Below are positions 6,215 through 45,333 of a stretch of 64,000 nt of DNA, in pieces. The DNA lies in NCBI RefSeq assembly GCF_965363235.1, contig NC_134841.1, positions 74,589,723-74,653,722 of the forward strand, written 5' to 3'. Numbering within the stretch: position 1 is the stretch's first letter; each line of letters starts with the position of its first letter. The notes below the pieces were generated by a model. That model was not told where the DNA came from. It did no database searches and saw nothing but the letters and a program-made list of their open reading frames with translations. This DNA is from Mytilus galloprovincialis. Taxonomy: Eukaryota. Position numbers and translations under genes: made by a program.

Positions 6215-6367
6215 CAGAAGAGGATTTAGGGGGTCATGGTACCCGTCCCCTTTTTGTGGGAAAAAAAGATTATTATTTCGGAATCACTGAAGCATGACTG
6301 GACCCCCCCCCCCTTTAATAGCAGTCAGTGGGCCACCCATTATGGAAATTTCTGGATCTGCCTCTGG
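6215..6367 (+). mobile_element. MITE-like element, copy A (same family as the insertion at 9836-9995)
   Basis: Shares ...ggatttaggggg...gggaaaaaa...ggaatcactgaagc(a/g)tgactgga...cagtcagtgggcc...tatgRaaatttctggatc(t/c)gcc(t/a)ctgg with copy B. Terminal inverted repeat approx CCAGAGGCRGAT. Internal poly-C/G runs. Confidence 0.5.
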
Positions 6368-6384
6368 TATAAAATGTATACTTA

Positions 6385-6575
6385 ATGTTAATAAGAAAAC
6401 TATCCAACACAGTCTCCGTATTAGGCATGAAATGTTAATAATAAAACTATCCAACACAGTCTCCATATTAGGCATGAAATGTTAATAATAAAACTATCCA
6501 ACACAGTCTCCATATAAGGCATGAAATATTAATAAGAAAACTATCCAACACAGGCTCCATATAAGGCGGATTTAA
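6385..6575. repeat. ~49-bp tandem repeat, ~3.8 copies
   Basis: The unit taataaNaaaactatccaacacagtctccRtatWaggcatgaaatRt is repeated head-to-tail. Confidence 0.75.
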
Positions 6576-9662: not shown

Positions 9663-11506
9663 CTAACAGCGTCCGTACAATATAGGTCCACTAGCATTCG
9701 CAACTATAATTTTTTCATTCTTTACATCAAACTCGAGTCCAAAAGGATTATTAATTCCGTAATCTTTCCCAAGCAGCTTTCTTGCGTGTTTTCCATCCGA
9801 CGACAGTACAATTATACCATTGTTACCAGAAGAAGCCAGAGGCGGATTTAGGGGGGGGCAGGGGGCCCGGGCCCCCCTTTTTGGGAAAAAATGTGGTTGC
9901 TTATATAGGGAATCACTGAAGCGTGACTGGAGCGGGCCCCCTCTTAGGTCAGTCAGTGGGCCCCCACTTATGAAAATTTCTGGATCCGCCACTGGAAGCA
10001 ATATACACGTTTGAGTCTTTATCTATAGATATCCCTCGCGGACAAAGAACTGATTGATCTTTGTATTCCCACATCTTCTCTCCAGTCAATGAGCAGCATG
10101 TAACTGTATGGTGTAAGCTATTGGTATAAAATATCTTGTCTTTAGATGTTGTTATAAAACTCCAGTTTGTCAAGGTTTCGTCTTTAACCAAGGTAGAAGA
10201 GCAATTATCCAACACATTTACCTTCTGTATACCCAAGCCAGAATTACAGTATAATAAGTGGCCATCTCTGTAACATATACCGAAACAGTAACTGGTTGTC
10301 TTTATCGTGCTTTCAATTGAAATTTGTTAAAATGTTGATGATTGGAATTTGATTGGAAAATTGAAATGTAACAGCAACCGTCTTGTCATCGATACAAGTA
10401 ACATCTAATGGGTAGGAGCTTGACAATGATATGTAATTCTTTAAGGTTCCATCTTTGTTTAAGATCAGAAGACGTTGTTGTTTGTAGCCTAACAGAAAGA
10501 TATCTCCCGTACTAGAAAAAGAACACCCTCTGACACCAGTAAAGTTTTCCAATGTCATGTTGATATCATTAATATTGGTAGTTGTAGGTGATGCATGATG
10601 AATAGTTATAATCTGTGCTTGTTTGTCATTCTCAGTCTGCAAAACCACCAACGGAGAACTCGATTCAACAGATATTGAACAAAATGAAGTTACAGTAGAC
10701 AATACGTCGGATAGCTTGTCCTCAATGTTATAGTTCAAGTCTATCTTCTGTGAACTACCATCCTCAAATAATGACTGCATTAATATTTCATGTTTCTTAA
10801 TTTCTGTTTCAATCATTTTACTCCCAAGAAATGCCTGTAGGTCTGACGCATATTCTTTGACAGCTGACATATTAGTTTGCAATATATCAATATTTTCCGT
10901 ATGTTTAGCAAGTTTTCTCAGTAAATCTTCTATTTGTGCTTTAACTTTCTCTTCTGCAGAATATAAATCCTGATGTATTAGTTGTTCTAACCCGTCAAGG
11001 TGCGCGTTAATTTTATTATGAACCTTTTTTATTTCATCGCAAATTTTCTGCCTTTGATTCTGGATTTCTTCAAGATTTTGTTTCCGATCTTTTACAACTT
11101 TCTCGGCATTTATTTTGATATATTTCAGATTTTCATCAAGACTCTTCAATAAGACTGAAGTCTTTGCCGTTTGTATGACATTCTCCAGCGACAATATCCC
11201 AACACATTCAGCATGGTTGGACTGAATACACAGTGGACAACCGATACTTTCATGTTGCGGACAATACATCTGAAATTTTCTGTCATGCTGTGAACAGTAT
11301 GGTGATATTTTTGCTATTGAGGGAGGTAATTGTTTATAGTTGTCGACAGATATAACATCATGGTTACGTGAGGCTTTCGATGCATTCTGATACTGCAGAC
11401 ATTGAGATCAGAGTCCTTCGTCACATTCAGGGCACCAGTAGTCAGCATTTGTTGTCGTGTGCTGAGACTCACAAATACCACACGAAACTGTGCTCGATGA
11501 TGCCAT
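9663..11506 (-). pseudogene. TRIM-like (B-box1, B-box2, coiled-coil, NHL repeats; no RING) gene carrying three lesions; likely pseudogene
   Basis: Minus-strand frame from ATG at 11506: MASSSTVSCGICESQHTTTNADYWCPECDEGL[TGA]SQCLQYQNASKASRNHDVISVDNYKQLPPSIAKISPYCSQHDRKFQMYCPQHESIGCPLCIQSNHAEC... is B-box1 then B-box2. A long coiled-coil follows (ORF 10313-11269), then NHL-like repeats (..GICYRDGHLLYCNSGLGIQKVNV.., ..GISIDKDSNVYIASSG.., ..NNGIIVLSSDGKHARKLLGKDYGINNPFGLEFDVKNEKIIVANASGPILYGRC*). Lesions: (1) in-frame TGA at 11408-11410 where a B-box zinc-ligand Cys is expected. (2) A 1-nt frameshift near 10313-10326. (3) The MITE at 9836-9995. Confidence 0.6.
9836..9995 (+). mobile_element. MITE insertion (copy B, 160 bp) inside the NHL-repeat coding region of the TRIM-like gene; 3-bp target-site duplication AAG
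   Basis: Element ccagaggcggatttagggggg...cagtcagtgggcccccacttatgaaaatttctggatccgccactgg. It is flanked by aag at 9833-9835 and 9996-9998. Element plus one TSD is 163 nt (3n+1). Removing it fuses the upstream and downstream NHL reading frames exactly (..NVYIASSG|NNGIIVLSSDGK..). Confidence 0.65.
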
Positions 11507-12463: not shown

Positions 12464-13100
12464 ACCAGACTCAAGCTGGCAGCCACTTTCATCGGCCAAT
12501 CAAGATAGCAGCCACTTTTTTCCAGCAGCCAATTTTGACGATATGTCTAAAAACCAAAAAACTGCGTGAGGCTCAAACGTTCCAAAAATCGCTAAATCTT
12601 AGTTAAATGCAATCTAACAGCGGAAATCGACAATTTCACGGTTTCTGCTAATTTCTAAAGCATTTCATTCCGTTTTAAATATGTATGTAAGCGATCTGTC
12701 CTTTATTTGACATTCGATAATTGATATTCAATATCCAACCGACTGCTAGCCGTCGGTTCAATATTTCAATTTAGTTGAAAATCACTATAAAGCCTGAGAG
12801 AAAAGATACCATTTTATGACCCCTTCAAGCTGTCATAAATTTTCGTTGTCCTCGAATATAAACCCTGATACAAGTTGTATATTTGTCTTTATGTTATATA
12901 GATTTTTATCAATAAAACATTACAGAGGATTCACCAAAGATGTAATTTAATATATAAAATATGAAACAAAATCCAATTACTCCAGAAACATATAGAAATA
13001 TACATAGAAATACTTATGGAAAGCCAAAAAAAAAAAAAGAAATTAATAGTGAACACCTACCAGAGACTGCTTAAATGACGGTGACCACCCTAAGACGACT
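12464..13100 (-). mobile_element. Satellite-flanking module, copy 2 (reverse complement of 4725-5355)
   Basis: accagactcaagctggcagccacttt...ctaccagagactgcttaaatgacggtgaccaccctaagacgac is the reverse complement of the module at 4725-5355 and 44695-45333. It is joined to the satellite at the same junction. Confidence 0.6.
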
Positions 13101-16100
13101 TTGGACCTCTGTGGTGGCCAGACGGGCCCGGATCCCAGAAAAATATTTAAGTGGCAAATAGCTTGGATCAATACCTTTGAAATGAGCTAGGTCCGGTTCG
13201 GAACTTTGCCGTAGGGATATGTCGAGGAGTACCGAATGTGTGGTTGATATGGAAAATACGTAAATTGGCAACTTTGAACCTCTGTGGTGGCCAGACGGGC
13301 CCGGATCCCAGAAAAATATTTAAGTGGGGAATAGCTTGGGTCAATACCTTTAAAATGAGCTAGGTCCGGTTCGGAACTTTGCCGTTGGTATATGCCGAAA
13401 AGTACCGAATGTATGCATATGGTTAATACGGAAAATTACGTTATGGGGCACCTTTGAACCTCTGTGGTGGCCAGACGGGCCCGGATCCCAGAAACATATT
13501 TAAGTGGCAAATAGCTTGGATCAATACCTTTGAAATGAGCTAGGTCCGGTTCGGAACTTTGCCGTAGGGATATGTCGAGGAGTACCGAATGTGTGGTTGA
13601 TATGGAAAATACGTAAATGGGCATTTTGAAGCTCTGTGGTGGCCAGACGGGCCCGGATCCCAGAAAAATATTTAAGTGGCAAATAGCTTGGATCAATACC
13701 TTTGAAATGAGCTAGGTCCGGTTCGGAACTTTGCCGTAGGGATATGTCGAGGAGTACCGAATGTGTGGTTGATATGGAAAATACGTAAATTGGCAACTTT
13801 GAACCTCTGTGGTGGCCAGACGGGCCCGGATCCCAGAAAAATATTTAAGTGGGGAATAGCTTGGGTCAATACCTTTAAAATGAGCTAGGTCCGGTTCGGA
13901 ACTTTGCCGTTGGTATATGCCGAAAAGTACCGAATGTATGCATATGGTTAATACGGAAAATTACGTTATGGGGCACCTTTGAACCTCTGTGGTGGCCAGA
14001 CGGGCCCGGATCCCAGAAACATATTTAAGTGGCAAATAGCTTGGATCAATACCTTTGAAATGAGCTAGGTCCGGTTCGGAACTTTGCCGTAGGGATATGT
14101 CGAGGAGTACCGAATGTGTGGTTGATATGGAAAATACGTAAATGGGCATTTTGAAGCTCTGTGGTGGCCAGACGGGCCCGGATCCCAGAAAAATATTTAA
14201 GTGGCAAATAGCTTGGATCAATACCTTTGAAATGAGCTAGGTCCGGTTCGGAACTTTGCCGTAGGGATATGTCGAGGAGTACCGAATGTGTGGTTGATAT
14301 GGAAAATACGTAAATTGGCAACTTTGAACCTCTGTGGTGGCCAGACGGGCCCGGATCCCAGAAAAATATTTAAGTGGGGAATAGCTTGGGTCAATACCTT
14401 TAAAATGAGCTAGGTCCGGTTCGGAACTTTGCCGTTGGTATATGCCGAAAAGTACCGAATGTATGCATATAGTTAATACGGAAAATTACGTTATGGGGCA
14501 CCTTTGAACCTCTGTGGTGGCCAGACGGGCCCGGATCCCAGAAACATATTTAAGTGGCAAATAGCTTGGATCAATACCTTTGAAATGAGCTAGGTCCGGT
14601 TCGGAACTTTGCCGTAGGGATATGTCGAGGAGTACCGAATGTGTGGTTGATATGGAAAATACGTAAATGGGCATTTTGAAGCTCTGTGGTGGCCAGACGG
14701 GCCCGGATCCCAGAAAAATATTTAAGTGGCAAATAGCTTGGATCAATACCTTTGAAATGAGCTAGGTCCGGTTCGGAACTTTGCCGTAGGGATATGTCGA
14801 GGAGTACCGAATGTGTGGTTGATATGGAAAATACGTAAATTGGCAACTTTGAACCTCTGTGGTGGCCAGACGGGCCCGGATCCCAGAAAAATATTTAAGT
14901 GGGGAATAGCTTGGGTCAATACCTTTAAAATGAGCTAGGTCCGGTTCGGAACTTTGCCGTTGGTATATGCCGAAAAGTACCGAATGTATGCATATGGTTA
15001 ATACGGAAAATTACGTTATGGGGCACCTTTGAACCTCTGTGGTGGCCAGACGGGCCCGGATCCCAGAAACATATTTAAGTGGCAAATAGCTTGGATCAAT
15101 ACCTTTGAAATGAGCTAGGTCCGGTTCGGAACTTTGCCGTAGGGATATGTCGAGGAGTACCGAATGTGTGGTTGATATGGAAAATACGTAAATGGGCATT
15201 TTGAAGCTCTGTGGTGGCCAGACGGGCCCGGATCCCAGAAAAATATTTAAGTGGCAAATAGCTTGGATCAATACCTTTGAAATGAGCTAGGTCCGGTTCG
15301 GAACTTTGCCGTAGGGATATGTCGAGGAGTACCGAATGTGTGGTTGATATGGAAAATACGTAAATTGGCAACTTTGAACCTCTGTGGTGGCCAGACGGGC
15401 CCGGATCCCAGAAAAATATTTAAGTGGGGAATAGCTTGGGTCAATACCTTTAAAATGAGCTAGGTCCGGTTCGGAACTTTGCCGTTGGTATATGCCGAAA
15501 AGTACCGAATGTATGCATATGGTTAATACGGAAAATTACGTTATGGGGCACCTTTGAACCTCTGTGGTGGCCAGACGGGCCCGGATCCCAGAAACATATT
15601 TAAGTGGCAAATAGCTTGGATCAATACCTTTGAAATGAGCTAGGTCCGGTTCGGAACTTTGCCGTAGGGATATGTCGAGGAGTACCGAATGTGTGGTTGA
15701 TATGGAAAATACGTAAATGGGCATTTTGAAGCTCTGTGGTGGCCAGACGGGCCCGGATCCCAGAAAAATATTTAAGTGGCAAATAGCTTGGATCAATACC
15801 TTTGAAATGAGCTAGGTCCGGTTCGGAACTTTGCCGTAGGGATATGTCGAGGAGTACCGAATGTGTGGTTGATATGGAAAATACGTAAATTGGCAACTTT
15901 GAACCTCTGTGGTGGCCAGACGGGCCCGGATCCCAGAAAAATATTTAAGTGGGGAATAGCTTGGGTCAATACCTTTAAAATGAGCTAGGTCCGGTTCGGA
16001 ACTTTGCCGTTGGTATATGCCGAAAAGTACCGAATGTATGCATATAGTTAATACGGAAAATTACGTTATGGGGCACCTTTGAACCTCTGTGGTGGCCAGA

Positions 16101-19100
16101 CGGGCCCGGATCCCAGAAACATATTTAAGTGGCAAATAGCTTGGATCAATACCTTTGAAATGAGCTAGGTCCGGTTCGGAACTTTGCCGTAGGGATATGT
16201 CGAGGAGTACCGAATGTGTGGTTGATATGGAAAATACGTAAATGGGCATTTTGAAGCTCTGTGGTGGCCAGACGGGCCCGGATCCCAGAAAAATATTTAA
16301 GTGGCAAATAGCTTGGATCAATACCTTTGAAATGAGCTAGGTCCGGTTCGGAACTTTGCCGTAGGGATATGTCGAGGAGTACCGAATGTGTGGTTGATAT
16401 GGAAAATACGTAAATTGGCAACTTTGAACCTCTGTGGTGGCCAGACGGGCCCGGATCCCAGAAAAATATTTAAGTGGGGAATAGCTTGGGTCAATACCTT
16501 TAAAATGAGCTAGGTCCGGTTCGGAACTTTGCCGTTGGTATATGCCGAAAAGTACCGAATGTATGCATATGGTTAATACGGAAAATTACGTTATGGGGCA
16601 CCTTTGAACCTCTGTGGTGGCCAGACGGGCCCGGATCCCAGAAACATATTTAAGTGGCAAATAGCTTGGATCAATACCTTTGAAATGAGCTAGGTCCGGT
16701 TCGGAACTTTGCCGTAGGGATATGTCGAGGAGTACCGAATGTGTGGTTGATATGGAAAATACGTAAATGGGCATTTTGAAGCTCTGTGGTGGCCAGACGG
16801 GCCCGGATCCCAGAAAAATATTTAAGTGGCAAATAGCTTGGATCAATACCTTTGAAATGAGCTAGGTCCGGTTCGGAACTTTGCCGTAGGGATATGTCGA
16901 GGAGTACCGAATGTGTGGTTGATATGGAAAATACGTAAATTGGCAACTTTGAACCTCTGTGGTGGCCAGACGGGCCCGGATCCCAGAAAAATATTTAAGT
17001 GGGGAATAGCTTGGGTCAATACCTTTAAAATGAGCTAGGTCCGGTTCGGAACTTTGCCGTTGGTATATGCCGAAAAGTACCGAATGTATGCATATGGTTA
17101 ATACGGAAAATTACGTTATGGGGCACCTTTGAACCTCTGTGGTGGCCAGACGGGCCCGGATCCCAGAAACATATTTAAGTGGCAAATAGCTTGGATCAAT
17201 ACCTTTGAAATGAGCTAGGTCCGGTTCGGAACTTTGCCGTAGGGATATGTCGAGGAGTACCGAATGTGTGGTTGATATGGAAAATACGTAAATGGGCATT
17301 TTGAAGCTCTGTGGTGGCCAGACGGGCCCGGATCCCAGAAAAATATTTAAGTGGCAAATAGCTTGGATCAATACCTTTGAAATGAGCTAGGTCCGGTTCG
17401 GAACTTTGCCGTAGGGATATGTCGAGGAGTACCGAATGTGTGGTTGATATGGAAAATACGTAAATTGGCAACTTTGAACCTCTGTGGTGGCCAGACGGGC
17501 CCGGATCCCAGAAAAATATTTAAGTGGGGAATAGCTTGGGTCAATACCTTTAAAATGAGCTAGGTCCGGTTCGGAACTTTGCCGTTGGTATATGCCGAAA
17601 AGTACCGAATGTATGCATATGGTTAATACGGAAAATTACGTTATGGGGCACCTTTGAACCTCTGTGGTGGCCAGACGGGCCCGGATCCCAGAAACATATT
17701 TAAGTGGCAAATAGCTTGGATCAATACCTTTGAAATGAGCTAGGTCCGGTTCGGAACTTTGCCGTAGGGATATGTCGAGGAGTACCGAATGTGTGGTTGA
17801 TATGGAAAATACGTAAATGGGCATTTTGAAGCTCTGTGGTGGCCAGACGGGCCCGGATCCCAGAAAAATATTTAAGTGGCAAATAGCTTGGATCAATACC
17901 TTTGAAATGAGCTAGGTCCGGTTCGGAACTTTGCCGTAGGGATATGTCGAGGAGTACCGAATGTGTGGTTGATATGGAAAATACGTAAATTGGCAACTTT
18001 GAACCTCTGTGGTGGCCAGACGGGCCCGGATCCCAGAAAAATATTTAAGTGGGGAATAGCTTGGGTCAATACCTTTAAAATGAGCTAGGTCCGGTTCGGA
18101 ACTTTGCCGTTGGTATATGCCGAAAAGTACCGAATGTATGCATATAGTTAATACGGAAAATTACGTTATGGGGCACCTTTGAACCTCTGTGGTGGCCAGA
18201 CGGGCCCGGATCCCAGAAACATATTTAAGTGGCAAATAGCTTGGATCAATACCTTTGAAATGAGCTAGGTCCGGTTCGGAACTTTGCCGTAGGGATATGT
18301 CGAGGAGTACCGAATGTGTGGTTGATATGGAAAATACGTAAATGGGCATTTTGAAGCTCTGTGGTGGCCAGACGGGCCCGGATCCCAGAAAAATATTTAA
18401 GTGGCAAATAGCTTGGATCAATACCTTTGAAATGAGCTAGGTCCGGTTCGGAACTTTGCCGTAGGGATATGTCGAGGAGTACCGAATGTGTGGTTGATAT
18501 GGAAAATACGTAAATTGGCAACTTTGAACCTCTGTGGTGGCCAGACGGGCCCGGATCCCAGAAAAATATTTAAGTGGGGAATAGCTTGGGTCAATACCTT
18601 TAAAATGAGCTAGGTCCGGTTCGGAACTTTGCCGTTGGTATATGCCGAAAAGTACCGAATGTATGCATATGGTTAATACGGAAAATTACGTTATGGGGCA
18701 CCTTTGAACCTCTGTGGTGGCCAGACGGGCCCGGATCCCAGAAACATATTTAAGTGGCAAATAGCTTGGATCAATACCTTTGAAATGAGCTAGGTCCGGT
18801 TCGGAACTTTGCCGTAGGGATATGTCGAGGAGTACCGAATGTGTGGTTGATATGGAAAATACGTAAATGGGCATTTTGAAGCTCTGTGGTGGCCAGACGG
18901 GCCCGGATCCCAAAAATATTTAAGTGGCAAATAGCTTGGATCAATACCTTTGAAATGAGCTAGGTCCGGTTCGGAACTTTGCCGTAGGGATATGTCGAGG
19001 AGTACCGAATGTGTGGTTGATATGGAAAATACGTAAATTGGCAACTTTGAACCTCTGTGGTGGCCAGACGGGCCCGGATCCCAGAAAAATATTTAAGTGG

Positions 19101-22100
19101 GGAATAGCTTGGGTCAATACCTTTAAAATGAGCTAGGTCCGGTTCGGAACTTTGCCGTTGGTATATGCCGAAAAGTACCGAATGTATGCATATGGTTAAT
19201 ACGGAAAATTACGTTATGGGGCACCTTTGAACCTCTGTGGTGGCCAGACGGGCCCGGATCCCAGAAACATATTTAAGTGGCAAATAGCTTGGATCAATAC
19301 CTTTGAAATGAGCTAGGTCCGGTTCGGAACTTTGCCGTAGGGATATGTCGAGGAGTACCGAATGTGTGGTTGATATGGAAAATACGTAAATGGGCATTTT
19401 GAAGCTCTGTGGTGGCCAGACGGGCCCGGATCCCAGAAAAATATTTAAGTGGCAAATAGCTTGGATCAATACCTTTGAAATGAGCTAGGTCCGGTTCGGA
19501 ACTTTGCCGTAGGGATATGTCGAGGAGTACCGAATGTGTGGTTGATATGGAAAATACGTAAATTGGCAACTTTGAACCTCTGTGGTGGCCAGACGGGCCC
19601 GGATCCCAGAAAAATATTTAAGTGGGGAATAGCTTGGGTCAATACCTTTAAAATGAGCTAGGTCCGGTTCGGAACTTTGCCGTTGGTATATGCCGAAAAG
19701 TACCGAATGTATGCATATGGTTAATACGGAAAATTACGTTATGGGGCACCTTTGAACCTCTGTGGTGGCCAGACGGGCCCGGATCCCAGAAACATATTTA
19801 AGTGGCAAATAGCTTGGATCAATACCTTTGAAATGAGCTAGGTCCGGTTCGGAACTTTGCCGTAGGGATATGTCGAGGAGTACCGAATGTGTGGTTGATA
19901 TGGAAAATACGTAAATGGGCATTTTGAAGCTCTGTGGTGGCCAGACGGGCCCGGATCCCAGAAAAATATTTAAGTGGCAAATAGCTTGGATCAATACCTT
20001 TGAAATGAGCTAGGTCCGGTTCGGAACTTTGCCGTAGGGATATGTCGAGGAGTACCGAATGTGTGGTTGATATGGAAAATACGTAAATTGGCAACTTTGA
20101 ACCTCTGTGGTGGCCAGACGGGCCCGGATCCCAGAAAAATATTTAAGTGGGGAATAGCTTGGGTCAATACCTTTAAAATGAGCTAGGTCCGGTTCGGAAC
20201 TTTGCCGTTGGTATATGCCGAAAAGTACCGAATGTATGCATATAGTTAATACGGAAAATTACGTTATGGGGCACCTTTGAACCTCTGTGGTGGCCAGACG
20301 GGCCCGGATCCCAGAAACATATTTAAGTGGCAAATAGCTTGGATCAATACCTTTGAAATGAGCTAGGTCCGGTTCGGAACTTTGCCGTAGGGATATGTCG
20401 AGGAGTACCGAATGTGTGGTTGATATGGAAAATACGTAAATGGGCATTTTGAAGCTCTGTGGTGGCCAGACGGGCCCGGATCCCAGAAAAATATTTAAGT
20501 GGCAAATAGCTTGGATCAATACCTTTGAAATGAGCTAGGTCCGGTTCGGAACTTTGCCGTAGGGATATGTCGAGGAGTACCGAATGTGTGGTTGATATGG
20601 AAAATACGTAAATTGGCAACTTTGAACCTCTGTGGTGGCCAGACGGGCCCGGATCCCAGAAAAATATTTAAGTGGGGAATAGCTTGGGTCAATACCTTTA
20701 AAATGAGCTAGGTCCGGTTCGGAACTTTGCCGTTGGTATATGCCGAAAAGTACCGAATGTATGCATATGGTTAATACGGAAAATTACGTTATGGGGCACC
20801 TTTGAACCTCTGTGGTGGCCAGACGGGCCCGGATCCCAGAAACATATTTAAGTGGCAAATAGCTTGGATCAATACCTTTGAAATGAGCTAGGTCCGGTTC
20901 GGAACTTTGCCGTAGGGATATGTCGAGGAGTACCGAATGTGTGGTTGATATGGAAAATACGTAAATGGGCATTTTGAAGCTCTGTGGTGGCCAGACGGGC
21001 CCGGATCCCAGAAAAATATTTAAGTGGCAAATAGCTTGGATCAATACCTTTGAAATGAGCTAGGTCCGGTTCGGAACTTTGCCGTAGGGATATGTCGAGG
21101 AGTACCGAATGTGTGGTTGATATGGAAAATACGTAAATTGGCAACTTTGAACCTCTGTGGTGGCCAGACGGGCCCGGATCCCAGAAAAATATTTAAGTGG
21201 GGAATAGCTTGGGTCAATACCTTTAAAATGAGCTAGGTCCGGTTCGGAACTTTGCCGTTGGTATATGCCGAAAAGTACCGAATGTATGCATATGGTTAAT
21301 ACGGAAAATTACGTTATGGGGCACCTTTGAACCTCTGTGGTGGCCAGACGGGCCCGGATCCCAGAAACATATTTAAGTGGCAAATAGCTTGGATCAATAC
21401 CTTTGAAATGAGCTAGGTCCGGTTCGGAACTTTGCCGTAGGGATATGTCGAGGAGTACCGAATGTGTGGTTGATATGGAAAATACGTAAATGGGCATTTT
21501 GAAGCTCTGTGGTGGCCAGACGGGCCCGGATCCCAGAAAAATATTTAAGTGGCAAATAGCTTGGATCAATACCTTTGAAATGAGCTAGGTCCGGTTCGGA
21601 ACTTTGCCGTAGGGATATGTCGAGGAGTACCGAATGTGTGGTTGATATGGAAAATACGTAAATTGGCAACTTTGAACCTCTGTGGTGGCCAGACGGGCCC
21701 GGATCCCAGAAAAATATTTAAGTGGGGAATAGCTTGGGTCAATACCTTTAAAATGAGCTAGGTCCGGTTCGGAACTTTGCCGTTGGTATATGCCGAAAAG
21801 TACCGAATGTATGCATATGGTTAATACGGAAAATTACGTTATGGGGCACCTTTGAACCTCTGTGGTGGCCAGACGGGCCCGGATCCCAGAAACATATTTA
21901 AGTGGCAAATAGCTTGGATCAATACCTTTGAAATGAGCTAGGTCCGGTTCGGAACTTTGCCGTAGGGATATGTCGAGGAGTACCGAATGTGTGGTTGATA
22001 TGGAAAATACGTAAATGGGCATTTTGAAGCTCTGTGGTGGCCAGACGGGCCCGGATCCCAGAAAAATATTTAAGTGGCAAATAGCTTGGATCAATACCTT

Positions 22101-25100
22101 TGAAATGAGCTAGGTCCGGTTCGGAACTTTGCCGTAGGGATATGTCGAGGAGTACCGAATGTGTGGTTGATATGGAAAATACGTAAATTGGCAACTTTGA
22201 ACCTCTGTGGTGGCCAGACGGGCCCGGATCCCAGAAAAATATTTAAGTGGGGAATAGCTTGGGTCAATACCTTTAAAATGAGCTAGGTCCGGTTCGGAAC
22301 TTTGCCGTTGGTATATGCCGAAAAGTACCGAATGTATGCATATGGTTAATACGGAAAATTACGTTATGGGGCACCTTTGAACCTCTGTGGTGGCCAGACG
22401 GGCCCGGATCCCAGAAACATATTTAAGTGGCAAATAGCTTGGATCAATACCTTTGAAATGAGCTAGGTCCGGTTCGGAACTTTGCCGTAGGGATATGTCG
22501 AGGAGTACCGAATGTGTGGTTGATATGGAAAATACGTAAATGGGCATTTTGAAGCTCTGTGGTGGCCAGACGGGCCCGGATCCCAGAAAAATATTTAAGT
22601 GGCAAATAGCTTGGATCAATACCTTTGAAATGAGCTAGGTCCGGTTCGGAACTTTGCCGTAGGGATATGTCGAGGAGTACCGAATGTGTGGTTGATATGG
22701 AAAATACGTAAATTGGCAACTTTGAACCTCTGTGGTGGCCAGACGGGCCCGGATCCCAGAAAAATATTTAAGTGGGGAATAGCTTGGGTCAATACCTTTA
22801 AAATGAGCTAGGTCCGGTTCGGAACTTTGCCGTTGGTATATGCCGAAAAGTACCGAATGTATGCATATAGTTAATACGGAAAATTACGTTATGGGGCACC
22901 TTTGAACCTCTGTGGTGGCCAGACGGGCCCGGATCCCAGAAACATATTTAAGTGGCAAATAGCTTGGATCAATACCTTTGAAATGAGCTAGGTCCGGTTC
23001 GGAACTTTGCCGTAGGGATATGTCGAGGAGTACCGAATGTGTGGTTGATATGGAAAATACGTAAATGGGCATTTTGAAGCTCTGTGGTGGCCAGACGGGC
23101 CCGGATCCCAGAAAAATATTTAAGTGGCAAATAGCTTGGATCAATACCTTTGAAATGAGCTAGGTCCGGTTCGGAACTTTGCCGTAGGGATATGTCGAGG
23201 AGTACCGAATGTGTGGTTGATATGGAAAATACGTAAATTGGCAACTTTGAACCTCTGTGGTGGCCAGACGGGCCCGGATCCCAGAAAAATATTTAAGTGG
23301 GGAATAGCTTGGGTCAATACCTTTAAAATGAGCTAGGTCCGGTTCGGAACTTTGCCGTTGGTATATGCCGAAAAGTACCGAATGTATGCATATGGTTAAT
23401 ACGGAAAATTACGTTATGGGGCACCTTTGAACCTCTGTGGTGGCCAGACGGGCCCGGATCCCAGAAACATATTTAAGTGGCAAATAGCTTGGATCAATAC
23501 CTTTGAAATGAGCTAGGTCCGGTTCGGAACTTTGCCGTAGGGATATGTCGAGGAGTACCGAATGTGTGGTTGATATGGAAAATACGTAAATGGGCATTTT
23601 GAAGCTCTGTGGTGGCCAGACGGGCCCGGATCCCAGAAAAATATTTAAGTGGCAAATAGCTTGGATCAATACCTTTGAAATGAGCTAGGTCCGGTTCGGA
23701 ACTTTGCCGTAGGGATATGTCGAGGAGTACCGAATGTGTGGTTGATATGGAAAATACGTAAATTGGCAACTTTGAACCTCTGTGGTGGCCAGACGGGCCC
23801 GGATCCCAGAAAAATATTTAAGTGGGGAATAGCTTGGGTCAATACCTTTAAAATGAGCTAGGTCCGGTTCGGAACTTTGCCGTTGGTATATGCCGAAAAG
23901 TACCGAATGTATGCATATGGTTAATACGGAAAATTACGTTATGGGGCACCTTTGAACCTCTGTGGTGGCCAGACGGGCCCGGATCCCAGAAACATATTTA
24001 AGTGGCAAATAGCTTGGATCAATACCTTTGAAATGAGCTAGGTCCGGTTCGGAACTTTGCCGTAGGGATATGTCGAGGAGTACCGAATGTGTGGTTGATA
24101 TGGAAAATACGTAAATGGGCATTTTGAAGCTCTGTGGTGGCCAGACGGGCCCGGATCCCAGAAAAATATTTAAGTGGCAAATAGCTTGGATCAATACCTT
24201 TGAAATGAGCTAGGTCCGGTTCGGAACTTTGCCGTAGGGATATGTCGAGGAGTACCGAATGTGTGGTTGATATGGAAAATACGTAAATTGGCAACTTTGA
24301 ACCTCTGTGGTGGCCAGACGGGCCCGGATCCCAGAAAAATATTTAAGTGGGGAATAGCTTGGGTCAATACCTTTAAAATGAGCTAGGTCCGGTTCGGAAC
24401 TTTGCCGTTGGTATATGCCGAAAAGTACCGAATGTATGCATATGGTTAATACGGAAAATTACGTTATGGGGCACCTTTGAACCTCTGTGGTGGCCAGACG
24501 GGCCCGGATCCCAGAAACATATTTAAGTGGCAAATAGCTTGGATCAATACCTTTGAAATGAGCTAGGTCCGGTTCGGAACTTTGCCGTAGGGATATGTCG
24601 AGGAGTACCGAATGTGTGGTTGATATGGAAAATACGTAAATGGGCATTTTGAAGCTCTGTGGTGGCCAGACGGGCCCGGATCCCAGAAAAATATTTAAGT
24701 GGCAAATAGCTTGGATCAATACCTTTGAAATGAGCTAGGTCCGGTTCGGAACTTTGCCGTAGGGATATGTCGAGGAGTACCGAATGTGTGGTTGATATGG
24801 AAAATACGTAAATTGGCAACTTTGAACCTCTGTGGTGGCCAGACGGGCCCGGATCCCAGAAAAATATTTAAGTGGGGAATAGCTTGGGTCAATACCTTTA
24901 AAATGAGCTAGGTCCGGTTCGGAACTTTGCCGTTGGTATATGCCGAAAAGTACCGAATGTATGCATATGGTTAATACGGAAAATTACGTTATGGGGCACC
25001 TTTGAACCTCTGTGGTGGCCAGACGGGCCCGGATCCCAGAAACATATTTAAGTGGCAAATAGCTTGGATCAATACCTTTGAAATGAGCTAGGTCCGGTTC

Positions 25101-28100
25101 GGAACTTTGCCGTAGGGATATGTCGAGGAGTACCGAATGTGTGGTTGATATGGAAAATACGTAAATGGGCATTTTGAAGCTCTGTGGTGGCCAGACGGGC
25201 CCGGATCCCAGAAAAATATTTAAGTGGCAAATAGCTTGGATCAATACCTTTGAAATGAGCTAGGTCCGGTTCGGAACTTTGCCGTAGGGATATGTCGAGG
25301 AGTACCGAATGTGTGGTTGATATGGAAAATACGTAAATTGGCAACTTTGAACCTCTGTGGTGGCCAGACGGGCCCGGATCCCAGAAAAATATTTAAGTGG
25401 GGAATAGCTTGGGTCAATACCTTTAAAATGAGCTAGGTCCGGTTCGGAACTTTGCCGTTGGTATATGCCGAAAAGTACCGAATGTATGCATATAGTTAAT
25501 ACGGAAAATTACGTTATGGGGCACCTTTGAACCTCTGTGGTGGCCAGACGGGCCCGGATCCCAGAAACATATTTAAGTGGCAAATAGCTTGGATCAATAC
25601 CTTTGAAATGAGCTAGGTCCGGTTCGGAACTTTGCCGTAGGGATATGTCGAGGAGTACCGAATGTGTGGTTGATATGGAAAATACGTAAATGGGCATTTT
25701 GAAGCTCTGTGGTGGCCAGACGGGCCCGGATCCCAGAAAAATATTTAAGTGGCAAATAGCTTGGATCAATACCTTTGAAATGAGCTAGGTCCGGTTCGGA
25801 ACTTTGCCGTAGGGATATGTCGAGGAGTACCGAATGTGTGGTTGATATGGAAAATACGTAAATTGGCAACTTTGAACCTCTGTGGTGGCCAGACGGGCCC
25901 GGATCCCAGAAAAATATTTAAGTGGGGAATAGCTTGGGTCAATACCTTTAAAATGAGCTAGGTCCGGTTCGGAACTTTGCCGTTGGTATATGCCGAAAAG
26001 TACCGAATGTATGCATATGGTTAATACGGAAAATTACGTTATGGGGCACCTTTGAACCTCTGTGGTGGCCAGACGGGCCCGGATCCCAGAAACATATTTA
26101 AGTGGCAAATAGCTTGGATCAATACCTTTGAAATGAGCTAGGTCCGGTTCGGAACTTTGCCGTAGGGATATGTCGAGGAGTACCGAATGTGTGGTTGATA
26201 TGGAAAATACGTAAATGGGCATTTTGAAGCTCTGTGGTGGCCAGACGGGCCCGGATCCCAGAAAAATATTTAAGTGGCAAATAGCTTGGATCAATACCTT
26301 TGAAATGAGCTAGGTCCGGTTCGGAACTTTGCCGTAGGGATATGTCGAGGAGTACCGAATGTGTGGTTGATATGGAAAATACGTAAATTGGCAACTTTGA
26401 ACCTCTGTGGTGGCCAGACGGGCCCGGATCCCAGAAAAATATTTAAGTGGGGAATAGCTTGGGTCAATACCTTTAAAATGAGCTAGGTCCGGTTCGGAAC
26501 TTTGCCGTTGGTATATGCCGAAAAGTACCGAATGTATGCATATGGTTAATACGGAAAATTACGTTATGGGGCACCTTTGAACCTCTGTGGTGGCCAGACG
26601 GGCCCGGATCCCAGAAACATATTTAAGTGGCAAATAGCTTGGATCAATACCTTTGAAATGAGCTAGGTCCGGTTCGGAACTTTGCCGTAGGGATATGTCG
26701 AGGAGTACCGAATGTGTGGTTGATATGGAAAATACGTAAATGGGCATTTTGAAGCTCTGTGGTGGCCAGACGGGCCCGGATCCCAGAAAAATATTTAAGT
26801 GGCAAATAGCTTGGATCAATACCTTTGAAATGAGCTAGGTCCGGTTCGGAACTTTGCCGTAGGGATATGTCGAGGAGTACCGAATGTGTGGTTGATATGG
26901 AAAATACGTAAATTGGCAACTTTGAACCTCTGTGGTGGCCAGACGGGCCCGGATCCCAGAAAAATATTTAAGTGGGGAATAGCTTGGGTCAATACCTTTA
27001 AAATGAGCTAGGTCCGGTTCGGAACTTTGCCGTTGGTATATGCCGAAAAGTACCGAATGTATGCATATGGTTAATACGGAAAATTACGTTATGGGGCACC
27101 TTTGAACCTCTGTGGTGGCCAGACGGGCCCGGATCCCAGAAACATATTTAAGTGGCAAATAGCTTGGATCAATACCTTTGAAATGAGCTAGGTCCGGTTC
27201 GGAACTTTGCCGTAGGGATATGTCGAGGAGTACCGAATGTGTGGTTGATATGGAAAATACGTAAATGGGCATTTTGAAGCTCTGTGGTGGCCAGACGGGC
27301 CCGGATCCCAGAAAAATATTTAAGTGGCAAATAGCTTGGATCAATACCTTTGAAATGAGCTAGGTCCGGTTCGGAACTTTGCCGTAGGGATATGTCGAGG
27401 AGTACCGAATGTGTGGTTGATATGGAAAATACGTAAATTGGCAACTTTGAACCTCTGTGGTGGCCAGACGGGCCCGGATCCCAGAAAAATATTTAAGTGG
27501 GGAATAGCTTGGGTCAATACCTTTAAAATGAGCTAGGTCCGGTTCGGAACTTTGCCGTTGGTATATGCCGAAAAGTACCGAATGTATGCATATGGTTAAT
27601 ACGGAAAATTACGTTATGGGGCACCTTTGAACCTCTGTGGTGGCCAGACGGGCCCGGATCCCAGAAACATATTTAAGTGGCAAATAGCTTGGATCAATAC
27701 CTTTGAAATGAGCTAGGTCCGGTTCGGAACTTTGCCGTAGGGATATGTCGAGGAGTACCGAATGTGTGGTTGATATGGAAAATACGTAAATGGGCATTTT
27801 GAAGCTCTGTGGTGGCCAGACGGGCCCGGATCCCAGAAAAATATTTAAGTGGCAAATAGCTTGGATCAATACCTTTGAAATGAGCTAGGTCCGGTTCGGA
27901 ACTTTGCCGTAGGGATATGTCGAGGAGTACCGAATGTGTGGTTGATATGGAAAATACGTAAATTGGCAACTTTGAACCTCTGTGGTGGCCAGACGGGCCC
28001 GGATCCCAGAAAAATATTTAAGTGGGGAATAGCTTGGGTCAATACCTTTAAAATGAGCTAGGTCCGGTTCGGAACTTTGCCGTTGGTATATGCCGAAAAG

Positions 28101-28700
28101 TACCGAATGTATGCATATGGTTAATACGGAAAATTACGTTAAGGGGCACCTTTGAACCTCTGTGTTGGCCAGACGGGCCCGGATCCCAGAAAAATATTTC
28201 AGTGGGGAATAGCTTGGGTCAATACCTTTAAAATGAGATAGGTCCGGTTTGGAACTTTGGCGTTGGTATATGCCGAAAAGTACCGAATGTGTGGTTAATA
28301 CGGAAATTGACGTTAAGGGGCACCCTTGAACCTCTGTGGTGGCCAGACGGTCCCGGATCCCAGAAAATATTTAAGTTGGTAATAGCCTTGGTCAGTACCT
28401 TTTAAAATCAGCCAGGTCCGGTTCGGAACTTTGCCGTAGGGATATGTCGAGGAATACCGAATGTATTGTTGATATAGAAAATACATGTACGTAAATGGAC
28501 AATTTTGAACCTCTGTGGTGGCCAGACAGTGCCGGTTCCCAGAAAAATTTTGAAGTGGCGAATAGCTCGGGTCAATACCTTTAAAATGAGATAGGTCAGG
28601 TTCGGAACTTTGCCGTAGAGATAAGCCTAGGATTTCCGAAAGCATGTGTGGTTAATATGAAAAGTACGTTAAGGCACACCTTTGAATCCCTATAATGGCC
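13095..28700 (-). repeat. Satellite array: 525-bp higher-order repeat (three ~175-bp monomer variants), ~30 HOR copies that are virtually identical; last ~600 bp (28100-28700) progressively degenerate
   Basis: The ORF track repeats with exact 525-nt spacing (13436, 13961, 14486 ... 27609). Monomers contain GGATCC, GGGCCC and TGGCCA sites. A single G/A variant (atatGgtt vs atatAgtt) recurs at spacings of 3-5 HORs. Confidence 0.92.
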
Positions 28701-31687
28701 AATATCTTTCATTAGTACAACACCTCCAAATATAGATAAATTAAATTGGCTTCTTATAATGCTAGTAAAAAAGAACACGAATATAAAGTGTATGGAACTT
28801 GTTTGGTAACCTTTTTTCATTGAAACAGGTTATATTTAAAGTAGGGGACGGACACAGTTTTAAACTTTAAATAAAAGAATGTTTAAAAAGGTGGACCGAG
28901 AAAAGTCTTAACTGGTGTCCCAAGTGTTAAACACTTAAGCCCAAAGGTATCGCATCAAGGATTTTACTGACGAAAAAGTACAAAGTTCTTTTTATGAACC
29001 TTAACTTAAAAGAAGGTTCAGGATTTGAACCGCATCGGTAAGGTCTGGCTAAAACAAAACAGGTGTGGGTGAAAGAGGTCTTTGTTCCATGAAAAGGGTA
29101 ACCTAAGTCCTTAAACTCTTGATTCAAACAATAAGATTTGCAGTACCAACCTTTTAGCAAGTATAGGCTTTGACAATTTGCCCAAGATTATAAAGGATAC
29201 TTTCGTTATGCGAGTATTAATGTGGTGAAGGCTTAAACATCTGGACTACGTCTTTACCAAATAATAAACCACTAACGGATTTTAATCTCCCACCAGCATG
29301 TTTTGATAGAATACACATCCTCAGACTCTCTAGATTTTCCTTGTTTTGGTCTTAAGCTTCTATTGACAACTAAAGTTTCAAGAGTTCATCAATGTTTTAT
29401 GTGTCGAGTTTTTAATCTGATTTACCTCGAGTTCTTGGTGCAGAGTGGTCTTAAACTCATCTACCTTTTTCTCGAGTTCTTTAATGACTGTATCATTATC
29501 CTTTCTCTAGTCGTTTTATATCTCTCTTTATCTGGTTACACGCGGATTGTAATTTTAATTCTAACGGTTTCGTATAGTGTTTCAATTGACGCATGACTCG
29601 TCGTTTTATTGCAGCATCCGTATTATTATTCTAAGATTTAATGTTAGTGATAGGATTGTTGTTCATGTTCAATTCTTCAAGCAATTGACTCCTATTTATT
29701 TCTCAATTTCCATAAAGTCCAAATTTGTCTGTCTTGGAAACGCAACTTCATCAAGGTTTTCCTTCAGACAACAATTGTGACAAATACAAACAAAAGTGTC
29801 CACAGACCACTGGTGCTCTTATCTGAAGTTCATCGGTGATGTAGTAGATCTTAAGTTTCAAGTAATTTACCATTACGTAAGGGGGGATTAAAGTCCGTAA
29901 GAATCAAAATACGCTTTGCTTGTTGTCGTCTTAAACTAACACGTCCAATGGGTTCCAGGTCTCATAATGGAAGAGTTAAAAGGTCATCAAACACGTCTTG
30001 CAATCGTTAAATGTAATGTTCTGTCAATTGACTTGTTTCTTCGTTCCTTTAGCTTTCCTGGTGTGTTGACCATCACCCATTCGATATTAACACATCTTGT
30101 AAGAATCCATACAAAGTTAGCCATCATTTGACCACCACATGCATACCAATCATTTTTTATTTTGTTGACGTTGGTCGGAATTCGAAAACGGGTTGTCCAT
30201 ACAATAGTTTGATGTGTCAATCTTGTTTTGAATGTGAGATATGTCTTTTTAAAAGTCGTCGGTTTAAATTTAATAGGCTTAACTATCGGTGTCGGTAAAC
30301 AATTGTCGAACTTTGTTCCCGTTGGTTTACGCACAAAGTCCAAATGAATGTCGTACATTTAAAATCTTTGAAATGTCTAAGATAATTGCTCCTTAGTACA
30401 CAGGCTTGTTAAACTTTAGTTTGGTTTTCTTTATGTTTACTACTACCATGGACTCGTTATACACCACGAATTGGTCACAGTTGGGTGTAGCTATTAGTTT
30501 CAACGGTTGCTTATCAGTAGTCATTAATATTATATTCACCCGTTAACGTGTGTTTTCCATGGTATTTTCAAACATTGAGTTGTTTATCAGTTTAAAGGAA
30601 TACTTTTCAGATACGATGCTGGCTATGATTCTAAGGTTAGTGTTCAGGTCAATGAAAATTTTAAGCCAAATTGATTGTTAAATTTTTGACACACGATGCA
30701 CTTTGGTTAATACCAACCATTGGAAACAACACTATTTCAAATTTCTAAAAAAAAAAAAATAGTAAACACATGTAGTACATGAACATAGTCAGCCACACTA
30801 ATGTGTTTATTATTAAGTCGGTCAGCAGATAGTAGTTGTGTTTTCGTCTTGTCGTAATGACCCTTCATGAAATCGTAAGATAAACATTTTATTTTTAATT
30901 ATTTATCATAAATTCATTATTCTACCTAAATCACGACTTTCATACCTTAAATTGGTTCAACTTTAAATTCTAAGCTAAATATATAAGGTGTCGGACGAAT
31001 TTAACATAAACTTACAGGAATCAATGAAAAGCATTTCTTACCGGTAATTGACAGTCTAAGTTACATTTTTTTATGTACTGCACCACGATACTTACTTGTC
31101 GAACGCTCGTGATCACGCACTTTGTCTTCACCTAATTCATCATCGCACATGTGACAATATTAACTCGCTGTAAAACATTGGGATCTTCTTCAGTCATCAC
31201 CAGGTCTTTTATCAATGTAGATGTTTGCAATCGCCTTCATTATCTCTTCCATACAAGCCACAAATCTCTGAACAATGTCTTCCAGTGAGTACACTTTTGT
31301 TTCTTTATATTCCCTATGAGCATACTGGACACGGTAGTAAAACCAGAAGGTGTATTTTGTTAGTTAACATCCGTGTAAGCTTTTAGTTTGTCAGGTTGGC
31401 AAGTGTCTATCTGTTCTGAGCTACATTGAATGTCAGCATAAATAACATAAGGAAATCGCATTTTACGTTGGTACTATGTTGTAAGATATTGTAATGGTAT
31501 CTTCTTCTGGAATTTCGATTTTCACTCCATTCATCTTATCACAATACATTAAATGTTCGTCTAAAAAGTCCTCACTTTAACAATGATTGAAACATCTTCG
31601 ACAAAAACACTTTACCATTGTGGGATGACACTTGGGGACTTAACAAATGTGATAATAGTTATCAAAGTACCAGGATTATAATTTTGT

Positions 31688-31733
31688 ACGCCAGACGCGC
31701 GTTTCGTCTACATAAGACTCATCAGTGACGCTC
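31688..31733 (-). ncRNA. Hammerhead ribozyme, minimal type-I topology (copy 1)
   Basis: Minus strand: GAGCGUCA-CUGAUGA-GUC-UUAUGUA-GAC-GAAAC-GCGC-GUC|UGGCGU. Conserved CUGAUGA and GAAA cores are present. Stem II is GUC/GAC. Short helix III is AC/GU. GUC cleavage triplet. Helix I is GCGUCA with UGGCGU (6 bp including 2 G-U pairs). Confidence 0.6.
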
Positions 31734-32039
31734 AGATCAAAATATTTATAAAGCCAAACAAGTACAAAGTTGAAGAGCATTTAGGATCCAAAATTCCAAA
31801 AAGTTGTGCCAAATACGGCTAAGGTAATCTATTCCTGGGATAAGAAAATCCTTAGTTTTTCGAAAAATTCAGTTTTGTAAACGGGAAATTTATAAAAATG
31901 ACCACAATATTGATATTCATGTCAACACCAAAGTGTTGACTACTGGGCTGGTAATACCCGCGGGGACGAAACGTCCACCAGCAGTGGCATCGACCCAGTG
32001 GTGTATATAGTTATCAAAGTACCAGGATTATAATTTTGT

Positions 32040-32085
32040 ACGCCAGACGAGCGTTTCGTCTACTTAAGACTCATCAGTGACGCTC
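32040..32085 (-). ncRNA. Hammerhead ribozyme (copy 2; stem II loop UUAAGUA, helix III loop GCUC)
   Basis: Same core as copy 1, 352 nt away. Compensatory or neutral changes are confined to loops. Confidence 0.55.
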
Positions 32086-32391
32086 ATATCAAAATATTTA
32101 TAAAGCCAAACAAGTACAAAGTTGAAGAGCATTTAGGATCCAAAATTCCAAAAAGTTGTGCCAAATACGGCTAAGGTAATCTATTCCTGGGATAAGAAAA
32201 TCCTTAGTTTTTCGAAAAATTCAGTTTTGTAAACGGGAAATTTATAAAAATGAACACAATATTGATATTCATGTCAACACCGAAGTGTTGACTACTGGGC
32301 TGGTAATACCCTCGGGGACGAAACATCCACCAGCAGTGGCATCGACCCAGTGGTGTAAATAGTTATCAAAGTACCAGGATTATAATTTTGT

Positions 32392-32437
32392 ACGCCAGAC
32401 GCGCGTTTCGTCTACATAAGACTCATCAGTGACGCTC
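32392..32437 (-). ncRNA. Hammerhead ribozyme (copy 3, identical to copy 1)
   Basis: gccagacgcgcgtttcgtctacataagactcatcagtgacgctc on the plus strand is the reverse complement of the ribozyme. Confidence 0.55.
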
Positions 32438-34269
32438 ATATCAAAATATTTATAAAGCCAAACAAGTACAAACTTTTTATCCAACAGTAATGATGTTTAG
32501 TAGCATTGGTTAAATACAACGTGTTTGTGTGAGTTCTATTCTTTTTGATGTTTTTTGAATTTTTAACGGGTACTTTTTTGTATTTTTTGTATTGACTCAC
32601 TCGTAAAATGTACTTTTCTGATCCACCTATTCATGATGTGATTGTGAGAATACAGCTCACGTTAATAATGGCCTTCTTCTGTGCTAGTTTTACTGAAAGG
32701 CGTAGGTAAGACTCAAACATCAGGGATACAATTTATTCATATGAAGGTGTACTTCTACAATATGACTAACGTTCACTCACTTCCATCACGCATGCAAGTT
32801 GCTATGCTTTCTTTTGCCTTTTCTATCATTACTGTTAGTTCAGTGTCTTAGTTGGTTGATTCAGTAATACTAACTTGCCATGCTTGAGTTGACCTTAAAA
32901 GTGGAATCACTGTCACCTGTTGCAAGGTTTTTTTTACCAACTGTACTAGAAGCACCTTCGATGCCTACTTTAAGTTGTCTTCTGAAATTTTACGAATCAA
33001 ATGTATGTAAAGCACTTCGACTTGCCTTAAAAATGAATTAACAAATGGTTCAATAAACACTGTAGTTCTTTTCTACCATCTTTCATCTTAATAACAGGTT
33101 TCTTAGCTATGTCTTGTTGCAGTCCTTTTTCCTTTTTCTTGATCTATATGTAAGGTATACCACGTTTCTTTGCTTTTAGTATTAATTCATTTTTAGTGAA
33201 CACTTCTGTATTGGGTAACACTTGATGCGTGTTGTCTTCAATAAGCTTTACCAACACGTCTTTTGGGTTTATACTATATCCTTTTAACCCCAAATCCTTT
33301 GCCATTCGATGTAATTAGTTTACCGTTATTTGTAAATGACCCGCTGGTATTGTCTTTATAAACCTAGCGCAACCTCTTTATTATGTATAGCATGTATATT
33401 AACTCACAATCTAGGCGTACCCGGTATGTTTTTGTTTGTTAATGCCATTGTTTATTTAATACTTACACACATGTGTCTTTTATGATTATTTTTTTTTTTC
33501 AATTTTACACCCCTAACCACCACTTGTAATTTTTTTAATCTAATGTTTACTAGATGTGAAAAGAAAAATAATGACACGTACTACTACGCGGTTTTCTGTC
33601 TAATAAGGGTATAGGCAGTCGTACTTCTGATGAACGGTCTTTCCAACGTTCTTGTTTCGTAATACAACCCACTACAAGCCCACACCTTACTTGTTACCCG
33701 TTTTATTGACTTCAAGATTAGTAGGTAAGTATCACAAATTATTTCATCCCCACTTGTAGTGTCAATAATTTGGTTCACCTCACTTGTTGGCAGGTCCTTC
33801 CATTTTTGTTTTTCTTTTGTGTCAAAGGTATTCAGATCAATAAAATAATATTGATTATAAGATGCCTTCATAATCCTAATACTTATAAAAATATTCCTAT
33901 ATTCTGGTTTTTTTTTTCATTTTAAAAAACACCACCCCGTACTCCTATTCAAATTCTAACCCTAACACCCCTTACCCTAACACACCTTACTCTAAAACCT
34001 TAAACACCTTTTAAATCAGACTATAACTTTTACACCATGATGCTTATTTACCTGTATAATGTTACGTCATAACTTTTACTTACTAATATGACGTCACTTT
34101 TTTCACTGTCACCTTCCTACTTTCACGTTCACTGTTAATTACTAAAATTGAAAGTGTTGCAGCATTCTCTATTCTACACCACTGGTATGAACCCAGGCTA
34201 TTCACTACTTTTTTTATATAATCCAGAGCCATCTGCATTACAGTGGTTCCGAAATTCATATAACGTATT

Positions 34270-44694: not shown

Positions 44695-45333
44695 TCGTCT
44701 TAGGGTGGTCACCGTCATTTAAGCAGTCTCTGGTAGTTGTTCACTATTAATGTCTTTTCTTTTTTGGCTTTCCATAAGTATTTCTATGTATATTTCTATA
44801 TGTTTCTGGAGTAATTGGATTTTGTTTCATATTTTATATATTAAATTACATCTTTGGTGAATCCTCTGTAATGTTTTATTGATAAAAATCTATATAACAT
44901 AAAGACAAATATGCAACTTGTATCAGGGTTTATATTCGAGGACAACGAAAATTTATGACAGCTTGAAGAGGTCATAGAATGGTATTATTTCCCTCAGGCT
45001 TCATAGTGATAGTGATTGTCAACTAAATTTAAATATTGAACCGACGACTAGCAGTCGGTTGGATATTCAATATCAATTATCGAATGTCAAATAAAGGACA
45101 GACCGCTTACATACATATTTAAAACGGAATGAAATGCTTTAGAAATTAGCAGAAACCGTGAAATTGTCGATTTCCGCTGTTAGATTGCATTTAACTAAGA
45201 TTTAGCGATTTTTGGAACGTTTGAGCCTCACGCAGTTTTTTGGTTTTTAGACATATCGTCAAAATTGGCTGCTGGAAAAAAGTGGCTGCTATCTTGATTG
45301 GCCGATAAAAGTGGCTGCCAGCTTGAGTCTGGT
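44695..45333 (+). mobile_element. Satellite-flanking module, copy 3
   Basis: Near-identical to 4725-5355. Diverges from the other copies immediately after ...gcttgagtctggt. Confidence 0.6.

Follow-up and report, generated by a model that had tools for sequence, protein, structure and literature searches.

A MITE with hAT-type ends and a 5-bp target duplication in a broken B-box/NHL-type gene copy of Mytilus galloprovincialis

The coding sequence of an NHL-type propeller is interrupted in a 64,000-bp stretch of Mytilus galloprovincialis DNA (hereafter the window), and the locus raises the question of what the interrupting sequence is, where it begins and ends, to which superfamily it belongs, and whether it was this that disabled the gene. 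The original prediction, made from the letters of the DNA, had proposed a MITE flanked by a 3-bp duplication, AAG, whose precise excision would restore the reading frame. Much of this description was confirmed: inverted ends (CCAGAGGCGGAT and ATCCGCCACTGG) bound a 160-bp stretch at 9836-9995, which has internal runs of G and C and an aag on either side, and deletion of the stretch together with one aag joins ...GISIDKDSNVYIASSG in frame to NNGIIVLSSDGKHARK..., giving VYIASSG and then NNGIIVLSSDGKHARK. Removal of 163 bp restores the local frame, which then reads ...YIASSG followed directly by NNGIIV....

The insertion and its empty sites

The orthologous locus was compared in two other assemblies, one of M. 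galloprovincialis (GCA_900618805.1; L001) and one of M. edulis (GCA_963676685.2; L002). Both have an empty site: they read ACCAGAAGAAGCAATATA (GTTACCAGAAGAAGCAATATA; GTTACCAGAAGAAGCAATATAC) where the window is longer by 163 bases, and the flanks align on both sides of the element. All paralogous proteins, too, are uninterrupted, with ...ASSGN... running unbroken across the insertion point. The transposon insertion at 9837-9994 is genuine and, since both orthologous sites lack it, comparatively young; this copy is younger than the split of the window's haplotype from these two assemblies.

The Mytilus gene models at this locus bridge problem regions with introns, as in P0004, from which the B-boxes are missing, and on that precedent the 158 bp might be taken for an ordinary intron, or else for an artefact of assembly. 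On the coding strand, however, the insert starts with CAGTGG and ends with CCTCTG, without GT...AG boundaries, and the orthologs and all paralogs lack it, so that the intron reading was not borne out; an artefact would not be expected to have inverted ends, to lie between perfect duplicates of its target and to have relatives scattered over other contigs. We consider an intron or artefact extremely unlikely. The polarity of the event might also be reversed, with an ancestral element that was lost by excision from L001 and L002. hAT elements do excise, but hAT excision usually leaves footprints, whereas the two empty sites are identical, contain a single GAAGC each and agree with the consensus coding sequence of all paralogs; loss from both assemblies is therefore very improbable. 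The “precise excision” of the original prediction is a description of the ancestral allele rather than an event to be expected.

The element inserted in the ancestral allele measures 158 bp, with the ends CAGAGGCGGAT...ATCCGCCACTG as they stand in the window, and a G-run/C-run hairpin adjoins its left end. It lies well within the size of MITEs (below about 800 bp, with no coding capacity), the only open reading frames that cross it being ones that extend into the flanking DNA. Short and non-coding, with terminal inverted repeats, a target duplication, a verified empty site and several dispersed copies, it is a MITE, as had been proposed. The terminal motif CAGNGGCGGATYYAG occurs five times in the window with at most one mismatch, against 0.04 occurrences expected by chance; folded as a single strand of DNA, the MITE scored z = -1.9, a weak signal. 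The features of the locus are collected in Table 1.

Table 1. Features of the host gene copy, the inserted element and related copies (positions in the window; copies on metagenome contigs are given by their flanks and ends)
Feature	Position	Strand	Remarks
B-box/coiled-coil/NHL-like gene copy	9663-11506	-	Single exon, TRIM-like without RING; start 11506-11504, stop 9665-9663
Private nonsense codon TGA	11408-11410	-	Codon 33, first B-box; conserved Cys TGC in L001 and L002
Private +1 frameshift	10314-10328	-	AACAAATTTCAATTG versus AACAAA-ATCAAT in L001 and L002
MITE body	9837-9994	+	CAGAGGCGGATTTAGGGGGGGG...AAATTTCTGGATCCGCCACTG; non-coding; absent from the L001/L002 site; aligns with five other family copies
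Left terminal inverted repeat	9837-9851	+	CAGAGGCGGATTTAG; 12 of 15 positions match the right end
Right terminal inverted repeat	9980-9994	-	Minus strand reads CAGTGGCGGATCCAG
Left target duplication, GAAGC	9832-9836		Single GAAGC in empty sites, ...CCAGAAGAAGCAATATA...
Right target duplication, GAAGC	9995-9999		Single GAAGC in empty sites
Older same-family MITE	6215-6366	+	75% identical; target duplication no longer recognisable, flanks differ
Second-subfamily MITE	53794-53938	+	Same ends; GGCTA at 53789-53793 and GGCTA at 53939-53943
Degenerate second-subfamily copy	54525-54665	+	Left end CAGGTGCGGATCCAGG intact, right end decayed
L006 copy			ATTGT, CAGAGGCGGATTTAG...CTGGATCTGCCACTG, ATTGT; 5-bp duplication perfect
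L007 copy			CTAAA, CATAGGCGGATCCAGG...CTGGATCCGCCACTG, CTAAA; 5-bp duplication perfect
L008 copy			ATTAG, CAGAGGCGGATTTAGG...CTGGATCAACCACTG, CTTAG; 4 of 5, one mismatch

Target duplications across the family

A single copy cannot fix the ends of an element, and other copies were therefore examined. Public metagenome contigs were scanned with an internal motif common to both copies in the window, which gave four contigs from ENA assembly ERZ887851 (L006-L009) with three complete copies among them and a fourth that is truncated; internal-motif scans of viral_contigs and genome_contigs gave no match, and no family copies were present in 65 kb of unrelated Mytilus loci (L003-L005). Six members of the family were found (the window copies at 9837 and 6215, and L006-L009); a sister subfamily is represented by two or three copies. 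Divergence among the family copies is roughly 10-25%.

The count of target duplications is based on six complete MITE copies, namely those at 9837, 6215 and 53794 in the window and those on L006, L007 and L008. Five of the six are flanked by a 5-bp repeat (in one of these with a mismatch), the copy at 6215 being the exception. A perfect 5-bp repeat is expected by chance about once in 1000 per copy, so that four perfect repeats and one matching at 4 of 5 positions are not due to chance; 8-base flanks, tested around the copies with CAG...CTG ends, gave no match.

At the 9837 copy the full repeat is GAAGC, of which AAG is the middle. The original prediction thus erred in the 3-bp duplication, and its limits for the element were too wide by two bases, the extra C and G being the last and first bases of GAAGC. 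Its reading as a MITE with a 3-bp AAG duplication and CCAG...CTGG ends, from the PIF/Harbinger, CACTA/Chapaev, Zator or Academ superfamilies, could appeal to the AAG that flanks the 160-bp version and to an inverted repeat that is one base longer in the 9837 copy. This base is not a property of the family: no C precedes CAG and no G follows CTG in L006, L007, L008, the window copy at 53794 or L010 (a transposase-bearing copy, see below), all of which fit 5-bp repeats instead of 3-bp ones. In addition, PIF/Harbinger elements typically target TWA and not AAG, and the ends do not resemble those of CACTA. With 5 bp duplicated in every informative copy, PIF/Harbinger, CACTA, Zator and Academ do not fit, and we see very little likelihood in a 3-bp duplication.

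Related copies in the window had been listed as well. That at 6215-6367 is indeed related, being 75% identical over 160 bp to the 9837 element. The stretches at 53795-53945 and 54520-54665 have ends of roughly 36-39 bp in common with it, and there the kinship stops, as nothing else is shared; between themselves the two are 77% identical over 107 bp. The 53794 copy is also found in M. edulis, 100% identical to L002 311-461, and is thus older than the split of the two haplotypes. That the family is active in this region, as had been suggested, seems doubtful: divergence has reached 25% in the 6215 copy, the 53794 copy is old and the right end of the 54525 copy is degenerate.

The other M. galloprovincialis assembly lacks window 6231-6563 (at L001 15440-15452), which comprises most of the 6215 MITE and four 47-bp tandem repeats; the TIR-like strings CAGAAGAGGATTTAGG and AAGGCGGATTTAAG, two direct repeats, contain the breakpoints, so that this looks like a short-homology-mediated deletion. 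A lone CAGTGGCGGATTCCT at window 63633-63647 resembles a family end, with no partner end before the window stops at 64000.

Terminal sequences and transposase-bearing relatives

The terminal pentamers CAGAG, CAGTG, CAGGG and CATAG fit the hAT terminal motif YARNG (PMC3014272), with G as third base, which is invariant in hAT ends (PMC1131882). In place of the usual hAT duplication of 8 bp, the 5 bp seen in five of the six complete MITE copies recur in L010; hAT groups with 5-, 6- and 7-bp duplications are recognised.

Mytilus homologs were sought with the transposase of hAT_A.kagoshimensis_7 as query, an autonomous ark clam element labelled DNA/hAT-Tip100 in a curated bivalve library, with the ends CAGGCGCGGATCCAGAC and CAGTGGCGGATCCAGGA (PMC10294476, supplementary file 12). 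One element of M. edulis, 5635 bp long (CAJPWZ010003254.1, 4211-9845; L010), has the structure gcatg, CAGTGGTGGATCTAGGGGG...CCTGGATCCACCCCTG, gcatg, with a 5-bp duplication, GCATG; its left end within these flanks reads CAGTGGTGGATCTAGGGGGCGTAGAGGGCGTACTCCCCCCCC, and its ends, CAGTGGTGGATCTAGG and CAGGGGTGGATCCAGG, are of the same type as those of the MITE. The predicted protein of this element (P0153) matches DUF4371 at 67 bits (cut-off 32) and Dimer_Tnp_hAT at 20.7 bits, just below the cut-off of 21.4, and a relative (P0122) reaches 26.4 bits for Dimer_Tnp_hAT, above the cut-off. An N-terminal protease-like domain is joined to the transposase; Herpes_teg_N stands in the precomputed Pfam record, and a clam relative matches OTU. 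L010 is frameshifted and is the sole transposase-bearing copy with both ends readable. Three others (L011, L012 and L016) have one recognisable end each and hence give no reading of the target duplication; all transposase-bearing copies readable here are frameshifted or missing one end. Matching ends were not found in relatives from other organisms (L013-L015).

The MITE and the transposase-bearing elements do not share internal sequence. The features that suggest a link between them are ends of about 16 bp, the G-run/C-run hairpin adjacent to these inside the left end, and the length of the target duplication. The ends and the transposase of the relative point to hAT, and the 5-bp duplication leaves the superfamilies with 3-bp duplications unsupported; the 158-bp element is very probably a non-autonomous cut-and-paste DNA transposon, a hAT MITE whose lineage makes target duplications of 5 bp.

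Transib elements are also described as duplicating 5 bp (PMC1131882) and, before hAT5, were thought to be the sole superfamily of eukaryotic DNA transposons to do so, and by this measure the MITE could be a non-autonomous Transib element. The ends of Transib, however, begin with an invariant CAC (heptamer CACAATG), as opposed to the CAG or CAT at all ends here, where G as third base is a hAT signature. Transib transposases are RAG1-like, whereas the relative with the same ends as the MITE encodes a transposase of hAT type; no RAG1-like transposase was found between CAGNGGCGGAT ends. We judge a Transib origin to be highly unlikely.

For the hAT reading, the nearest precedent in duplication length is hAT5, a group of hAT transposons with 5-bp target duplications (Kapitonov and Jurka 2007, as cited in PMC12730594), described from invertebrates and fish (bioRxiv 10.1101/2021.11.26.470093). 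The Mytilus MITE is like this group in its hAT-type ends (YARNG, third base G), its 5-bp duplication and its animal host, and unlike it in that the curated bivalve library gives the label hAT-Tip100 to the bivalve transposase lineage that bears its ends. One bivalve hAT-hAT5 element, taken as the single proxy for hAT5 transposases, matches the end-bearing lineage at 22% over 82 aa (E = 0.011). Since this element has different ends and a marginally similar transposase, “hAT with a 5-bp duplication” is as far as the description can go, and membership of the hAT5 clade is no more than possible.

The ark clam element hAT_A.kagoshimensis_7 has nearly identical ends, followed by G-run/C-run motifs, and encodes an OTU-like domain and a DUF4371/hAT transposase; in the tblastn alignments, piece by piece, this transposase and the Mytilus copies are 42-60% identical. 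It differs from the MITE in being 4.1 kb long and coding, with no internal sequence in common; the length of its target duplication is absent from the library. The hAT-Tip100 group normally makes 8-bp duplications. Duplications of 8 bp are also reported for the hAT-type, Pegasus-like MITEs BmMITE-13, -14 and -16 of silkworm, with the ends CAGTGGCGGATTT, CAGTGGCGGATTA and CAAGGGCGGATCCAG (PMC2997013). These and Pegasus of Anopheles are, like the Mytilus MITE, short and non-coding, with almost the same terminal motif, whereas their 8-bp duplications and insect hosts set them apart from a 5-bp element in a mollusc; where Pegasus-like elements are defined by CAGTGGCGGAT... together with an 8-bp duplication, the end strings match and the length of the duplication does not. 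Among transposon studies, the silkworm MITE paper was the only match in a literature search with the end strings. A further Mytilus element, MgE, is treated in a paper on Helentron non-autonomous elements.

hAT elements with 5-bp duplications have been recognised before (hAT5). The family is to be classed as hAT with a 5-bp duplication and not with a superfamily making 3-bp duplications, which has little import beyond annotation; Pegasus/Tip100-like ends paired with a 5-bp duplication are the only mildly unusual point. It is conceivable, if doubtful, that in Mytilus the DUF4371/P52rIPK-like hAT lineage carrying the Tip100 label makes 5-bp instead of 8-bp duplications independently of the hAT5 clade, with CAGNGGCGGAT ends. 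If so, the length of the target duplication would have shifted within one end-recognition lineage, that of the CAGNGGCGGAT ends, for which 8 bp are duplicated in the Pegasus-like MITEs of insects.

As for the insertion itself, a transposase supplied in trans would have recognised the CAGNGGCGGATYYAGG ends, its likely source being the Mytilus DUF4371/hAT-dimerisation family with an N-terminal OTU-like protease domain, of which the 5.6-kb M. edulis copy is an example. The enzyme would have cut the target at GAAGC, where the gene encodes the last blades of the NHL-like propeller, with a 5-bp stagger whose repair gave the GAAGC duplication.

The host gene copy and its surroundings

The conceptual host protein is 79-95% identical to five Mytilus proteins (P0001-P0005), and its close relatives are all from Mytilus. 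Identity is 79-80% over the full 560 aa to proteins of M. coruscus and M. californianus, 95% to P0004 (M. galloprovincialis) and 91% to P0026 (M. edulis), the last two being shorter predictions. Its architecture is that of the family, with two B-boxes, a coiled coil and a C-terminal NHL-type propeller in about 560 aa encoded by a single exon; Pfam gave weak B-box and beta-propeller matches, all below cut-offs, and PF01436 (NHL) is on record for several of its homologs.

With 163 bases added, the frame is shifted by +1, so that ...YIASSG is followed by 13 foreign codons (GSRNFHKWGPTD) and a stop. Excision of the element, proposed as restoring the frame, would not restore a working gene: in a three-way DNA alignment of the window, L001 and L002, the window copy carries two private lesions, a TGA at codon 33 and, upstream of the MITE insertion, a +1 frameshift at about 10318-10322, both of which would remain. 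Given these two lesions, the copy is a pseudogene with or without the MITE. It also has a private in-frame deletion of 9 bp and a His-to-Gln change in the same zinc-binding motif as codon 33.

The orthologs differ in their state. In the other M. galloprovincialis assembly (L001 10001-11683) there is an intact open reading frame of 559 aa, of which the annotated 471-aa P0004 is the version that skips the B-boxes. The M. edulis ortholog (L002 9748-11240) has been broken independently, by indels of -2, -27 and +2 bp, and the annotated 403-aa P0026, which starts out of frame, is an artefact. One of the three assemblies retains an intact gene here, and in the other two it was broken by separate lesions; the locus seems to be one of the dispensable members of a very large Mytilus family and to be decaying in each lineage on its own. 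Either the insertion was without further consequence, or it was one of several hits on a dispensable gene; as an event it is ordinary for a bivalve genome rich in transposons. The insertion polymorphism is clean and datable, and it concerns an immune-type gene family of Mytilus in which presence/absence variation is known.

The window is AT-rich, with about 34% G+C outside two satellite blocks. A 32.9-kb block at window 12462-45333 is missing from the M. edulis ortholog, where ...GAAAGAGGAATACTTGTGCTAAATGG marks the empty site. The block is bounded by inverted repeats of 640 bp with 96% identity (12464-13100 versus 45333-44693), each arm has inside it a long array of a 172/173-bp satellite with an ApaI site and higher-order periods of 353/525 bp (13098-28686 forward, 37242-44695 inverted), its central 8.5 kb contain no open reading frame longer than 123 aa, and it is flanked by AATA(T) and AATA(C). 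The block looks like a giant foldback-type element with long inverted repeats that carries satellite DNA. Downstream of the M. edulis ortholog (L002 14421-21212) lies a large gene with MULE transposase, ZSWIM RNaseH-like and Peptidase_C48 domains, probably a Mutator-like element. At window 31654-32472 there are 2.3 tandem copies of a 352-bp unit with 97% identity between them; L001 3206-3406 matches it at about 85% identity, which marks it as another dispersed repeat.
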